From a virus (taxonomy: Duplodnaviria > Heunggongvirae > Uroviricota > Caudoviricetes): a stretch of 64,000 nucleotides of DNA. The stretch covers positions 1 to 64,000 of IMG/VR virus record IMGVR_UViG_3300014204_000003. One strand, given 5' to 3'. Positions 14,170 to 17,910 of the stretch are shown here, piece after piece (position 1 is the stretch's first letter; every line of letters starts with the position of its first letter). A model generated the notes under the pieces. That model was given only the letters and a program-made list of their open reading frames with translations, was not told the origin of the DNA and made no database searches. A program made the translations under genes and the position numbers.

Positions 14170-14520
14170 TTATTGGCCTTTAAGTTGAAGCTCGAGCTTC
14201 GCAATTTCATCCTTGAGAGCTTGACGCTTCTCTTCGGCTGGTAACAGGGCTTCCAGTCGGGATTTCTTCTCGCGCAGCATCTTTTCCAAACGATCGGCTT
14301 GTCGAAGAGTGATTTCCTTGCGGATCTCCCTCATCTTGGAATCGAACCAGTCTGGAAGTTCAACATTCAAAGCTTCGAACTCCGCTTGGATCGCTCGTCC
14401 AACCGCTGACAGGGTTACGAGGTCTTCAAGTGCAAGACCTTCAGTTTCGAACTTACGGATGTCATCAATAAGATATGCCATCGGGTTTCCTCCTTTCTTA
14501 GTTTGCTTTCTAGTCGCCAT
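14170..14520 (-). CDS. hypothetical coiled-coil protein
   Basis: 116-aa charged helical sequence. Confidence 0.4.
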   Translation of the reverse strand: MATRKQTKKGGNPMAYLIDDIRKFETEGLALEDLVTLSAVGRAIQAEFEALNVELPDWFDSKMREIRKEITLRQADRLEKMLREKKSRLEALLPAEEKRQALKDEIAKLELQLKGQ

Positions 14521-16093
14521 CGGTAAATGCCTCCGATAATTTCAGGAGAGGAGTTGCCATGATTTCCTCTGCCAAAGAGTATTGATTGGTTCGCATGCTT
14601 TGAACCAAGTTGGGTATGCTGTAATAATCCACGCTTCTCCCGAGAGGAAAGACCTGCAAATCAAATCCTTCCTTTTTCATCGAATCAGAAAGAAACGCGT
14701 CCGACCATCCACTAACTCCGGCATCGCAATGATAGAAATATACCGGGATATCCTTATCCGATATGTCCAGAAGATGCTTATATTCTTTGGCGAAGAATGG
14801 AGGCGTGTTTTCGAGCCCATCCGATATGATGGCAATACCGTCAATCTCATCGTGACGATTGATAGCGGCCTTCAATCCGCACCCGATGGAAGTTCCCCCT
14901 GAGGCACGATAGTTCTTCGTCTTCTTCAGAATTTCATCATACCCAAGGCCGGTTACATCCATGGTTTCAGGAGTTGAGTCGAAAAACACAAGAGAGACAT
15001 TCCCCTTTACCATCTTCGCCAATGTGCCGGCAACGCGCCTGGCAACCTCAATGCACTGTTCCATAGATCCGGATTTGTCTCCAAGGACAAGCCAATTACC
15101 CTCAACGCCCATGGAGGAAATCTGTTTCTCTTGAACAGCATTAAGTTTTGCCTTAAGCTTTTCATCGCCGATCGCTTCGGCCGCTCGGGTAGTCTTAAGA
15201 ACATTCTTCGTTGAGGTTGCTGCTTTCTTAAGGGCATCCTCATATGCCGCACGGAGCGCCGGATTCGTTTTCACTCCCAGTTTCTCTAACATTTTGGTGT
15301 TAGTGACGACTTCTGTCGAGCTCATGCACTCAATAAGCGCAAGAACCAAATCTGGATCCTTAACTTTTTCTCCGAGCGCCCCGTGCGCAATCAAGAACGG
15401 AATCTTCCGCTCAAGAATAGTTCCCGCGGCTTCACGCGCACTCATATTCCGCAGGTTTGCAACAGCCTCAAAAACGCTTCCTTTAGGAAGAGGAGACTTT
15501 ACCGGTTTCCTTCCTTCGGCCTTGGCATTCAATCTCTCGTCAAGTTTATACCCGAAGAGGACGATGTTCACCCGATCGGACCCGGGCTTCACGTCGACTA
15601 ACGAATAGAGCTCCTTCAGGACTGCCCGATGCTGAATTGCCGTGTAATCCCAGCCTTTTTTCTCTTTCGCATGGAGATACGCCGCAATGATGTTCTTGAT
15701 CTTGCGCATATTCCCAACAGGGCGGACCTCGAGCGCGAACCGGTATGCCTTCAATAGTTCCCGTGGGTTCAAAAGAGTTAAGTGAGCAAGACTATTCTCG
15801 ATCAGTTCTTCCGGATATCCCGGAACCGTCAAACTGACAATAGGCAAAGCGGCTTTGGCGTCACGGATTTGGCCATGAGTTCGGTCCCACGCAATCAGGT
15901 GGGCAAGGAAATCAGGATCATTCTTGGCAGCAAGCTGGCCGACAGTGAGATATTCCTTGAGGTTTCCGTGAGGAGACTTGCTCAATTCGGAAATAATTTG
16001 GTTCTTGGTAACAGCGGTCTTTTCCATGACGGTTTCTCCCTTTAAGAGTATGCGGAAAGTCGATCGGACTTTATTCCGGTTTCCCAGAATCAA
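14510..16093 (-). CDS. Ro60-like RNA-binding protein (TROVE domain + C-terminal VWA domain)
   Basis: 527 aa. The C-terminal VWA has MIDAS LVLGDKSGSM, then ASGGTSIGCGL and IAIISDGLEN. Upstream helical repeats include AVANLRNMSAREAAGTIL and RKIPFLIAHGAL, which recall the Ro60 segments ALLRNLGKMTANSVL, ARIHPFHILIAL, VDVSASM and AGGTDCSLP. Length and domain order match Ro60/Rsr. Confidence 0.55.
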   Translation of the reverse strand: MILGNRNKVRSTFRILLKGETVMEKTAVTKNQIISELSKSPHGNLKEYLTVGQLAAKNDPDFLAHLIAWDRTHGQIRDAKAALPIVSLTVPGYPEELIENSLAHLTLLNPRELLKAYRFALEVRPVGNMRKIKNIIAAYLHAKEKKGWDYTAIQHRAVLKELYSLVDVKPGSDRVNIVLFGYKLDERLNAKAEGRKPVKSPLPKGSVFEAVANLRNMSAREAAGTILERKIPFLIAHGALGEKVKDPDLVLALIECMSSTEVVTNTKMLEKLGVKTNPALRAAYEDALKKAATSTKNVLKTTRAAEAIGDEKLKAKLNAVQEKQISSMGVEGNWLVLGDKSGSMEQCIEVARRVAGTLAKMVKGNVSLVFFDSTPETMDVTGLGYDEILKKTKNYRASGGTSIGCGLKAAINRHDEIDGIAIISDGLENTPPFFAKEYKHLLDISDKDIPVYFYHCDAGVSGWSDAFLSDSMKKEGFDLQVFPLGRSVDYYSIPNLVQSMRTNQYSLAEEIMATPLLKLSEAFTDGD

Positions 16094-16149
16094 GGATCAA
16101 TGTTCAAAATTGACATGTAAGTCCATTCAGTATCCGCAAAGTTTTAGTA

Positions 16150-16224
16150 TCCCCTGCGCTATAGGCACTGTGCCGATTGGACTTGGTATGCCTAATTTAG
16201 TCCGCTCAGACAGCGCAGGGGACG
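16150..16224 (-). ncRNA. long imperfect hairpin (11-bp terminal stem tcccctgcgct/agcgcagggga) upstream of Ro60-like gene; candidate small RNA or 5' leader
   Basis: Inverted repeat seen in an ORF-free segment 60-130 nt upstream of the Ro60-like start. Confidence 0.3.
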
Positions 16225-16293
16225 TAGGTAATTATGAGCCTTGGCTCTATTACCTAAAATCTGGCCGCAAAGTCGATAATGCTGTTTTTAAAG

Positions 16294-16373
16294 ACTGATC
16301 TGAATTCAGTTGCCCAACCGTTAGGCGGAATCCCCCATAATAAAAAGGAGGGGGATCCAGGAGTCGAACCTGG
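16294..16373 (-). ncRNA. permuted tRNA-like element X (Y RNA tRNA-like-domain candidate or circularly permuted tRNA)
   Basis: Minus-sense order: T-arm CCAGG/TTCGACT/CCTGG, acceptor 3' strand ATCCCCC, a 13-nt loop, a perfectly complementary acceptor 5' strand GGGGGAT, a D-arm with the GG-containing loop TAACGGTTG, then a perfect 5-bp/7-nt hairpin ACTGA-ATTCAGA-TCAGT. All tRNA elements are present but rotated. Confidence 0.45.
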
Positions 16374-16525
16374 TACATGTAAGCATTTTCAGTGTGCAGC
16401 CATAAATCTAATGGCGGTAAGTTAGGACTGGTTTCGGGGTCGAACCGATATCTTCTTCCTGAGAAGGAGATTTTAATCCATGTATCCAGATTTCCCAGTA
16501 ACCGCCAAATTCTTCTGACCTGTAA

Positions 16526-16609
16526 GTCGACCAGCTATTTGTCGTCGCGTCTTCCAGTTTCGCCATTCCCCCATAAGGTAGATGCGGGGGAAGGAGGAAT
16601 CGAACCTCC
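16526..16609 (-). ncRNA. permuted tRNA-like element Z/W (second copy of the architecture)
   Basis: T-arm GGAGG/TTCGATT/CCTCC, acceptor 3' TTCCCCC, a 13-nt loop, a perfectly complementary GGGGGAA, a D-arm-like GCG/AAACTGGAAGA/CGC, and a 4-6-bp hairpin. The linker ends in TTAT as in element X. Confidence 0.35.
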
Positions 16610-17061
16610 AATTGGGTCTCCCCAAAACGGGCCTCAAGCCATGTAAGCTAATCAGTAACAGGTCATATGTCTTTTGTCCGGAGGGGAGCCGGGACGCTAT
16701 CCACTTGCTCCCCTTTTTTAATTGCCATCATTTTGGCATTTAATATCTTCTTGGCTGTAAGTCGCATGAGGGTTCAAAAGCACCCGATTCTCATCGGCCC
16801 CCCCATACTGTTTTGGTGGAGGGGGGCGGGTACGACCCGCTACGCATGTATCCGCATTACAGTAACAGCCAATCTCTTGTCCCTATGGTCTGGCCAGCCT
16901 ATCCCAGGCATATCCAGATTCCCGATTTGCAAGACCTTTCGGAAAAGCGGCCGGTCAAGTCTCGTGGGTTTGCTTATTCCCGACTCCGAAAGTGTATCCA
17001 CGGGCGTTGTTCCCTTGCGTATGTTGGAGCGGTGACTCTTACGCCACTGCCACAGGGATAC

Positions 17062-17670
17062 TTATTTGATTACCCGCCTTGCAAGGTAATCTACGAATCT
17101 ATTGGGATCCAATCCTCTCTGGGCGCACCAGGTAAATGGGTCCTCGGAACCTTTATCCTTATTGCATGGCTTGCATGCAGTAAGGTAGTTCGTTGTGTCG
17201 TTCTTGCCATCAAGTTCCAAGGGCATAAAATGATCGATAGTCATAAGCGATTTGCCCATCTGGGCACCGCAATACATGCACTTGAAACCATCCGCCGCCC
17301 ATACTTTCTGCTGTATGGTTCCGGATATCTCGTATCTCACCTTGCGCTGGAAAATCTTTGGATTTCCCATAAGGATTTCCGGATCATCGGAACGGCGAAT
17401 AAAATCAGACCATTCTTCGACATCAAGGGAATGGACTTTAGCCCTAACCACTTCATGATAATCAACTCCGGGTAGAGTGAGAATCGCTGGATCGGCGCCG
17501 GCTCCAGTAAGGAGAAGCCCACCTATCTTTACCAGAGAACCGATATCGCCATACATAACCGGGCGATTTCGCATTTCCATCAAATAGAACCGATCACTGC
17601 TTCCCTTGGCCATCTCATCCTCATTAATACTGGCGTTAAGTCCGTATGCTTTATTTCGCGCTCTAACCAA
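17062..17670 (-). CDS. HNH endonuclease
   Basis: CMYCGAQ...IDHFMPLELDGKNDTTNYLTACKPCNKDK HNH motif. The ORF-track N-terminus overlaps a tRNA-like 5' half, so the true start is probably an internal Met around MAKGSS or MEMRNRP. Confidence 0.65.
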   Translation of the reverse strand: MVRARNKAYGLNASINEDEMAKGSSDRFYLMEMRNRPVMYGDIGSLVKIGGLLLTGAGADPAILTLPGVDYHEVVRAKVHSLDVEEWSDFIRRSDDPEILMGNPKIFQRKVRYEISGTIQQKVWAADGFKCMYCGAQMGKSLMTIDHFMPLELDGKNDTTNYLTACKPCNKDKGSEDPFTWCAQRGLDPNRFVDYLARRVIK

Positions 17671-17717
17671 CTGAGCTACCCGGACGCATAAGCGCCCGGG
17701 GTTGGATTCGAACCAAC
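17658..17717 (-). ncRNA. permuted tRNA-like element A/B (third copy)
   Basis: Canonical T-arm GTTGG/TTCGAAT/CCAAC with acceptor 3' strand CCCGGGC, an 8-nt linker GCTTATGC, then acceptor 5' strand GTCCGGG (7/7 pairing, one G-U), TA, and a textbook D-arm GCTC/AGTTGGTTA/GAGC. No clean anticodon arm follows. The HNH ORF starts here. Confidence 0.35.
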
Positions 17718-17807
17718 GGCCTCGGCATTAGCATTGCATGTAAGCCTACCAGTGAACGCCATTTTTATAATTGCTGTTTCCTGAAAGTCGCTCGGCTGTA
17801 ATTTGGT

Positions 17808-17880
17808 CGTAAAAAGTTGGAATTGAACCAACTACCCATTGCTTTTCAGGCAATTGCTCTACCAGATGAGCTATTTTCAC
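17808..17880 (-). tRNA. tRNA-Phe (anticodon GAA)
   Basis: Hand fold in normal order. Acceptor GTGAAAA/TTTTTAC with one G-U, D-arm GCTC/ATCTGGTA/GAGC, anticodon arm with loop CTGAAAA, T-arm GTTGG/TTCAATT/CCAAC. Confidence 0.65.
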
Positions 17881-17910
17881 ATGTAAGCCGAACAGTATCA
17901 GGAAACTATA

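Follow-up and report, generated by a model that had tools for sequence, protein, structure and literature searches.

Ro60 and its Y RNA partners are conserved from bacteria to humans, and their function in microbes is still unclear. In bacteria and phages, Rsr (Ro60) occurs with the RNAs YrlA and YrlB, a combination reported from 254 bacteria and 22 phages in which YrlA lies upstream (PMC4201824); M. smegmatis YrlA is cleaved by RNase P and has CCA added (PMC4201824). The Ro60 of phage phiLo binds two upstream Y-like RNAs, Yrl1 and Yrl2, as well as host PNPase (PMC12135203). Here, we describe a locus in a 64,000-nt stretch of viral DNA (positions 1 to 64,000 of IMG/VR record IMGVR_UViG_3300014204_000003; hereafter the window), where a first-pass annotation had proposed a Ro60-like protein gene next to Y-RNA-like, permuted tRNA modules. 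This pairing is supported by the predicted fold, profile homology and covariance models, and we consider it probable that the locus is a phage Ro60/Y-RNA system from a highly divergent clade that lacks annotation, comprising a Ro60-fold ring, seven upstream RNAs and the mechanism proposed below.

By its anatomy, the locus would work like the Rsr/YrlA and phiLo systems. As in Rsr/YrlA loci (RF02553), a Ro60-fold protein is preceded within 2 kb by Y RNAs on the same strand. In contrast to Rsr, the protein is invisible to the TROVE hidden Markov model (HMM), and 5–7 RNAs are present per locus, whereas characterized Rsr loci have about two; two additional classes of RNA head (C and D, below) occur, and the partner genes encode an HNH nuclease and a coiled-coil protein instead of the rtcBA of the Salmonella rsr operon. 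In both structure and profile comparisons, the protein described here matches the phiLo Ro60 (PDB 9KOP, 9L5Y) best, which is likewise encoded by a phage and preceded by Y-like RNAs. The two proteins differ in being only ~16–17% identical, and the two phiLo RNAs are defined by a CGAA bulge, with no tRNA-like heads reported. A role of host PNPase has been shown for the phiLo system.

A divergent Ro60 homologue

All cassette features discussed here are encoded on the minus strand of the window. The central gene is the following:
14510–16027, minus strand: Ro60-like gene, 505 aa; HEAT-repeat ring and C-terminal VWA domain with an intact MIDAS motif (adhesion site dependent on a metal ion)

The first-pass annotation described a 527-aa open reading frame (ORF) at 14510–16093. 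The minus-strand ORF is present, but starting it at the TTG of 16093 is an annotation artefact, as the added codons run into RNA module M6 (below); translation from the ATG at 16027, behind the ribosome-binding site AAAGGGAG, yields 505 aa, and the same protein is called in public assemblies. The MIDAS motifs DKSGSM, GGTSIG and SDG were confirmed, with residues D317, S319 and S321 (DKSGSM), T379 (GGTSIG) and D403 (SDG) invariant in family alignments A1 and A7.

Sequence searches at the level of single families were of little help. Pfam matches of the protein were limited to a weak VWA signal (VWA_CoxE, 1.1e-5, below the cutoff), and some of ten distant family members gave a sub-threshold match to vWA_Ro60 (PF25045, 0.003–0.04). 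NCBIfam returned nothing relevant for the protein, PHROGs a weak match to phrog_850, annotated as 'RNA-binding protein', and neither a single-sequence phmmer search nor the narrow profile A1 (32 close homologues) found Ro60 in the PDB. The AlphaFold (AF2) model (predicted local distance difference test, pLDDT, 82; predicted template modelling score, pTM, 0.64) shows helical repeats over residues 8–305 followed by an α/β domain. When this model was compared with the PDB using Foldseek, ranks 1–13 were all Ro60 chains (E 1.4e-10 to 4.6e-7, TM 0.52–0.61), including those of Thermus phage phiLo, Xenopus and human and D. radiodurans Rsr. The alignments span essentially the full length (487–581 columns), and isolated VWA domains rank below them. 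A broad profile, A7, which takes in members only 29–36% identical and a jumbo-phage relative, matched the Ro60 proteins of phiLo (4.7e-9), Xenopus (1.4e-7) and human (1.9e-7) as well as D. radiodurans Rsr (2.2e-3); the jumbo-phage intermediate alone matches phiLo Ro60 at 1.5e-3 and thereby links the family to phiLo.

The Foldseek ranks and the A7 matches uphold the Ro60-like identity of the ORF despite Pfam. Together with the jumbo-phage intermediate and the invariant MIDAS, they indicate that the protein, judged by sequence and predicted structure, is genuinely homologous to Ro60 but strongly diverged, and lies beyond the reach of the Pfam TROVE model. The family is large: a profile search of 50%-identity representatives recovered 1086 proteins at E<=0.001 and 346 at E<=1e-30, all of them labelled hypothetical in the source annotations examined.

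YrlA-like RNA modules upstream of the Ro-like gene

Seven RNAs, each composed of a variable head held in a common frame, are located at 16051–17906, 24–1880 nt upstream of the Ro-like gene and on the same strand. Their heads form four conserved classes: A, YrlA-like; B, native-order tRNA-like; C, with a tRNA-Ala/transfer-messenger RNA (tmRNA)-like acceptor; and D, short hairpins. The first-pass annotation listed three minus-strand rotated tRNA modules; all three are present as described and constitute class A, but the total is seven framed modules rather than three. The class A modules are:
17631–17761, minus strand: M2, the most YrlA-like; V-arm, T-arm, closed acceptor and canonical D-arm; core 17655–17717 with T-arm GUUGG/UUCGAAU/CCAAC and acceptor CCCGGGC/GUCCGGG
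16516–16665, minus strand: M4 (frame scan, fold); two V hairpins, T-arm, closed acceptor and 3-bp D-arm with GG; core 16544–16609 with T-arm GGAGG-UUCGAUU-CCUCC and acceptor UUCCCCC/GGGGGAA
16262–16402, minus strand: M5 (frame scan, fold); T-arm, closed 7-bp acceptor, D-arm and an extra hairpin; core 16307–16373 with T-arm CCAGG-UUCGACU-CCUGG and acceptor AUCCCCC/GGGGGAU

The YrlA order, in which a terminal stem encloses a T-arm, a closed acceptor-like stem and a D-arm, is present in M2, M4 and M5, and the class A heads also share with YrlA the V arm that follows the terminal stem. The Rfam YrlA model (RF02553), to which the first-pass annotation had pointed, aligns M2 end to end at 40.5 bits (E 5.8e-7), but this is below the gathering score of 69 bits. 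The alignment places the frame where the YrlA terminal stem lies. M2 orthologues score 37–49 bits, and M4 and M5 are not reported by this model.

A dedicated covariance model, R1, comprising the T-arm, the acceptor hairpin and the D-arm, was built from 11 modules of other phages, some of them close relatives. Over the 64-kb window its three best matches are M2 (60.6 bits, E 1.5e-13), M4 (54.8 bits, E 4.1e-12) and M5 (47.8 bits, E 2.4e-10). Related loci were gathered via the Ro-like protein, giving 65 viral loci for the tblastn comparison of neighbours, 60 for R1 and 57 non-redundant ones for the frame scan. In the R1 set, 72/72 matches fall on the gene strand, mostly within 4 kb upstream of the Ro-like gene. 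Among 55 aligned copies, in an alignment that is fitted to the covariance model, 95.2% of cells are paired, compared with 63.3% in shuffles, and compensatory changes occur at 15/16 pairs, among them the seven pairs of the acceptor. In 20/24 related-locus frames with an early T-arm, a perfect 7/7 hairpin comes straight after it, where chance would give ~0.02 per case. The Rfam YrlA match of M2, the R1 ranks and these hairpins place the modules beyond chance, as had been claimed. In some relatives ACCA is encoded after the class A acceptor 3' strand, a likeness to M. smegmatis YrlA.

The next-best window matches of R1 (<=30.5 bits) are junctions between tandem tRNAs, an artefact that Chen et al. 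also noted (PMC4201824), and these weak matches could suggest that the modules derive from tRNA genes in decay or are junctions of this kind formed by chance. We give that explanation almost no weight: three modules reach 48–61 bits, a short loop joins the acceptor strands into perfect hairpins that covary over 55 copies, every module is enclosed in a frame, and conservation extends across proteins only 45–60% identical.

A shared frame with genome-specific variants

The class A modules share their frame with four others:
17776–17906, minus strand: M1, class B, native-order tRNA-like; head is a predicted tRNA-Phe(GAA) at 17804–17881
16751–16872, minus strand: M3, class C; hairpin, CCCCCCUCCACCA, 8-nt loop, GGGGGGG
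16413–16507, minus strand: M4b, variant frame UGGCGGU-UACUG ... GGAUACAUG ... UAACUU-ACCGCCA; found by eye, folds as a frame
16051–16138, minus strand: M6, class D; short head, two hairpins and UUGAACA (frame scan, fold), just upstream of the ribosome-binding site

The order of the frame elements is 5'-stem1, Y-ACUG, stem2, (U)UACAUG, head, A-rich stretch, stem2', CGACUU, stem1'-3'. Stem1 is 6–9 bp long and is followed by an internal loop of 5'-YAC against 3'-ACUU (3×4); stem2 begins where the UG of ACUG pairs with the CG of CGACUU, and the junction, with its invariant UACAUG and A-rich 3' side, presents the variable head. The motif CTTACATG occurs seven times in the window against an expectation of 1.4, and five of these occurrences are at 16114–17887 on the minus strand. 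It was also considered as a phage promoter; this was ruled out, as the motif sits inside a conserved, covarying RNA structure. Hammerhead and other ribozymes were likewise ruled out, with no Rfam matches.

Frames were located with a scan for pattern plus pairing in a flexible version. An earlier version that required exact CGAC abutting stem2 proved too strict (48 frames, with M2, M3, M5 and M6 missed). The flexible scan found six frames in the window, all at 16051–17906 on the minus strand, and both strands of the 64 kb were otherwise free of them; it mis-pairs M3 and misses the seventh frame, M4b, which has a longer spacer and UAACUU on its 3' side, and both were set by hand. In the 57 non-redundant related loci, all 75 frames lie on the gene strand and the opposite strand has none, while five shuffles together yielded 1; the bare 5' motif was counted 116 times on the gene strand versus 9 on the other. 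The frame stems vary freely in sequence between copies yet stay complementary. When seven M1 orthologues were aligned with MAFFT in the ordinary way, RNAalifold recovered stem1, stem2 and the whole cloverleaf, with compensatory pairs at 15/33 positions. A pseudo-alignment of frame halves (A3) also showed heavy covariation and was set aside as circular, because its partners had been chosen for pairing; the controls that count for the frame are the opposite strand, the shuffles and the plain MAFFT/RNAalifold result.

The association of frame and gene was also approached from the motif. A scan of IMG/VR with TACTGNNNNGCTTACATG returned 100 stretches, of which 84 lack a complete frame and look like chance matches. 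Among the 16 with a complete frame, the Ro-like gene was found within 10 and the HNH partner within one more. The 3' side of the frame differs by genome, reading CGACUU with a Y spacer, or CGACUA or CGACAC without one, and the variant is concordant between frames in 92.5% of comparisons within loci versus 38% between loci, even across head classes. Since frames with different heads share a variant within a genome, this fits one trans-acting reader encoded in the same genome.

UACAU(G) is invariant in the window frames, where it lies at 16119, 16381, 16484, 16645, 16850, 17742 and 17885 on the minus strand. MazF of B. subtilis and S. aureus cuts at U^ACAU, a cleavage pentad which we take to be the same as the UACAU(G) of the frame. 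The single-stranded motif, invariant in 7/7 window modules and in nearly all frames of relatives, could therefore be a decoy or substrate for a UACAU-specific MazF-type endoribonuclease, with the array serving as an anti-toxin sponge. This seems to us very unlikely: the probable hosts are Acidobacteriota or Verrucomicrobiota, whose MazF proteins may have another specificity, and the covarying stems, the CGACUU and the tRNA-like heads are left unexplained.

M2 ends 17 nt before the ATG of the HNH gene (gap 17614–17630), and M6 ends 23 nt before that of the Ro-like gene (16028–16050). A frame thus stands immediately before each of these two cassette protein genes, an arrangement which suggests that ribonucleoprotein (RNP) formation or processing is coupled to translation. 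The same spacings, the tight packing of the modules with no terminators between them and the sequence-invariant internal loop, as expected of a nuclease site, would also suit a frame that is mainly an RNA-processing or insulating element, at which a host or phage endoribonuclease would divide a long precursor into single RNAs and mRNAs while the Ro-like protein acts on different targets. We regard this as unlikely, given that the ten ordinary tRNAs at 10.3–13.3 kb need processing too and are unframed, and that, in the Rfam alignment to YrlA, the frame coincides with the Ro-binding stem; a processing role is in any case compatible with a Ro60/Y-RNA system.

Diversity of the heads

The class B head of M1 scores 67.1 bits with the Rfam tRNA model (gathering score 29) and is called Phe-GAA by ARAGORN, and its leader and trailer form the frame around tRNA-Phe. 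Its 3'-end register in the window is ambiguous, either GUGAAAA/UUUUUAC-G-ACCA or U1·G72-A-CCA. Orthologues of M1 retain the D, anticodon and T arms, and most have a GNRA-closed mini-hairpin in place of the acceptor stem. Anticodons at the framed position in the window and its orthologues are GAA, UGA, UUA, UGA, UUC, UGU and AAU; the class B loops keep U33 and R37 while the anticodon varies. Chen et al. describe a native-order arrangement for D. radiodurans Yrn1 (PMC4201824), and M1 resembles it in the succession of D-arm, anticodon-like arm and T-arm, with a Y stem replacing the acceptor. In contrast to Yrn1, M1 has a 7-bp acceptor, a CCA-like end and a full-tRNA score (67 bits), and its orthologues carry the mini-hairpin after the T-arm.

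The first-pass annotation regarded the tRNAs interleaved with the locus as normal ones. The ten at 10.3–13.3 kb and tRNA-Phe were confirmed with ARAGORN and the Rfam tRNA model, but tRNA-Phe lies inside a framed module. All 11 of these minus-strand tRNA genes (10298–13301 and 17804–17881) encode the 3' CCA.

Odd 'tRNAs' close upstream of the Ro-like gene were also seen in four relatives: at 1843–1917 in L002 (UUA), at 2708–2781 in L012 (UCA), at 2411–2481 in L014 (UCA) and at 2594–2667 in L021 (4-nt GUCA). A complete frame encloses the one in L002, and in L012 and L021 the 5' frame motif immediately precedes the 'tRNA'. To judge from their position, such suppressor-type or odd-anticodon 'tRNAs' may be Y-RNA heads rather than decoders.

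The class C head of M3 has an acceptor of the tRNA-Ala/tmRNA type (G1-C72, G2-C71, G3·U70, A73 and an encoded CCA) in permuted-tmRNA gene order. Its T-arm/acceptor part gives a weak match to tmRNA_permuted (RF04321; 18.7 bits versus a gathering score of 47) that covers model positions 36–93 only. The succession of hairpin, CCCCUCC-A-CCA, loop and GGGGGGG is shared with permuted tmRNA and tRNA-Ala minihelices; M3 differs in having no tag reading frame and no pseudoknots, in a hairpin without T-loop consensus and in its length of 122 nt. A true two-piece tmRNA was ruled out, as 122 nt leave no room for the coding piece. Twelve related loci carry the class C motif CCCCUCCAC(C/A)A in their upstream region, on the same strand as the gene. 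A permuted tmRNA proper is present in one relative (L034 69–358; RF04321 101 bits, ARAGORN tag AEDNALPMAA), ~3.6 kb upstream of its Ro-like gene.

The head of M4b consists of a hairpin and a T-loop-like hairpin, CGG/UUCGACC/CCG, and its stem1 is common to the 'tggcggt' modules of L001, L003 and L004. Class D modules such as M6 usually adjoin the gene start, and orthologous short modules are found there in L001–L004. One further structure was recognized between M5 and M6:
16150–16223, minus strand: unframed long hairpin (RNAfold)

This hairpin is conserved at 3581–3655 in L001 and 3715–3789 in L002, with two compensatory changes, and the 131-nt stretch around it has a folding energy of -50 kcal/mol. 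The hairpin possibly represents another noncoding RNA of the cassette, although its membership is uncertain.

Partner genes

Three further protein-coding features on the minus strand are relevant to the organization of the locus:
17062–17613, minus strand: HNH nuclease gene, 183 aa, between M2 and M3 (Pfam HNH 2.1e-9, 37.8 bits)
14170–14520, minus strand: coiled-coil protein gene, 116 aa, overlapping the Ro-like stop
11240–12157, minus strand: second HNH/endonuclease VII ORF, overlapping tRNA-Tyr, tRNA-Cys and tRNA-Asn (11930–12193)

A same-strand orthologue of the HNH gene at 17062–17613 was found by tblastn upstream of the Ro-like gene in 32/65 loci. Because this position is kept, the gene is, on the comparison of sequences, a conserved member of the cassette and not a homing intruder. 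In its structural model only the HNH domain is confident (Cas9-HNH/McrA-like), and the N-terminal ~95 aa have low pLDDT. The coiled-coil gene directly follows the Ro-like gene in 49/65 loci (tblastn); its product has no family match in Pfam or PHROGs. The remaining neighbours in the window, the second HNH gene included, recur in only 1–5 of 65 loci (tblastn). The overlap with tRNA-Tyr, tRNA-Cys and tRNA-Asn marks the N-terminal part of the second HNH ORF as spurious, and its true start is probably near 11902; the gene (11240–~11902) is sporadic (3/65 loci), which fits a homing element. Both HNH endonuclease genes that had been described as interleaved with the locus are thus confirmed, but the one at 17062–17613 is a member of the cassette rather than an interloper.

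Conservation of this kind raises the question of whether the frame is read by the coiled-coil (14170–14520) or the HNH (17062–17613) protein and not by the Ro-like ring. Their genes, present in 49/65 and 32/65 loci, respectively, always lie on the same strand inside the cassette, and the HNH protein has an N-terminal region of ~95 aa without assignment. This alternative strikes us as rather improbable, since 12 loci have frames but lack an HNH gene within 4 kb, neither protein has a recognizable RNA-binding domain, and Ro60 proteins are known to bind exactly such stems.

Proposed mechanism

For the Ro60/Y-RNA system that we favour, we hypothesize that the region is co-transcribed with the HNH, Ro-like and coiled-coil genes and that its RNAs are processed from the common transcript. 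The Ro-like ring would dock on the frame, which would replace the Ro-binding stem of YrlA. The tRNA-mimic heads would recruit or compete for host tRNA-handling factors, much as established Y RNAs serve as tethers for PNPase; the factors in question might be RNase P, the CCA-adding enzyme, alanyl-tRNA synthetase (AlaRS; for the G3·U70 class) and exoribonucleases. The outcome would be a set of specialized RNPs through which RNA decay or the quality control of tRNAs is remodelled in infected cells, and M6, located in the leader of the Ro mRNA, could provide feedback control.

Several observations weigh against this interpretation. The first-pass annotation had looked to TROVE for support, and Pfam TROVE (PF05731) gave no significant match, either for the Ro-like protein or for 10 distant members of its family. 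No module attains the Rfam YrlA gathering score (best M2, 40.5 versus 69). The YrlA motif GNCGAAN0-1G, the proposed Ro60 contact, is absent from 7/7 modules (M2 has GGCGUU there), with the YACUG / UACAUG / CGACUU frame in its stead; should the frame be a docking site, it is accordingly not of the kind already described. The co-conserved HNH and coiled-coil proteins are also potential readers of the frame. As the loci were collected by means of the protein, the association between frame and gene is partly by design, a bias that the motif-first IMG/VR scan removes only partly. Finally, a scan for promoters and terminators found none that was convincing, with counts no higher than the shuffle expectation, and is uninformative.

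The same parts could instead form a counter-defence or tRNA-surveillance module rather than a generic RNA-decay helper. One ring with its HNH and coiled-coil partners would then display up to seven interchangeable mimics, among them an alanine-acceptor (G3·U70-ACCA) minihelix and mimics bearing an anticodon that varies between relatives, as decoys or sensors for tRNA-targeting defence nucleases or toxins of the host, or as guides that direct nuclease activity to damaged tRNAs. We see this as a minor possibility.

Genomic setting

The window comes from the genome of a tailed phage, with genes for portal protein, large terminase, DnaB-like helicase and PurZ-like enzyme. An identical 505-aa Ro-like protein is also encoded on a 106,964-bp metagenomic contig, and relatives occur on ~100-kb viral contigs and on contigs of metagenome-assembled genomes (MAGs) assigned to Acidobacteriota and Verrucomicrobiota. 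The phage is a soil phage, as are its ~100-kb relatives, and the hosts, going by the MAG labels alone, are probably Acidobacteriota or Verrucomicrobiota.

The 20 large window ORFs that were examined encode the portal, the terminase, the PurZ-like protein, helicases and similar products; RtcB, PNPase and a CCA-adding enzyme were not among them. The PurZ-like protein (425 aa, 22628–23905, minus strand) matches phrog_1211, '2-aminooxy adenylosuccinate synthetase', at E 1.4e-73, and 2-aminoadenine may accordingly replace adenine in the DNA of this phage. Between the Ro cassette and the tRNA array, an RF-1-domain protein similar to the peptidyl-tRNA hydrolases ArfB/ICT1 is encoded at 13499–13855 on the minus strand (Pfam RF-1 4.3e-15); its gene is kept in the three closest relatives only.

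Implications

With this locus, a large clade of Ro60 proteins is defined that escapes standard domain models. The locus represents an expanded version of the known Ro60/Y-RNA partnership and offers a natural library of RNA partners that combine one stem motif with four classes of head. RNA recognition by the Ro60 ring can be addressed by comparing the frame variants CGACUU, CGACUA and CGACAC across genomes, and the function of tRNA-like heads through a candidate alanine-accepting Y RNA and through 'tRNAs' embedded in Y stems. For phage annotation, the finding calls for caution, as lone 'tRNAs' with odd or suppressor anticodons beside such genes may be the heads of Y RNAs.

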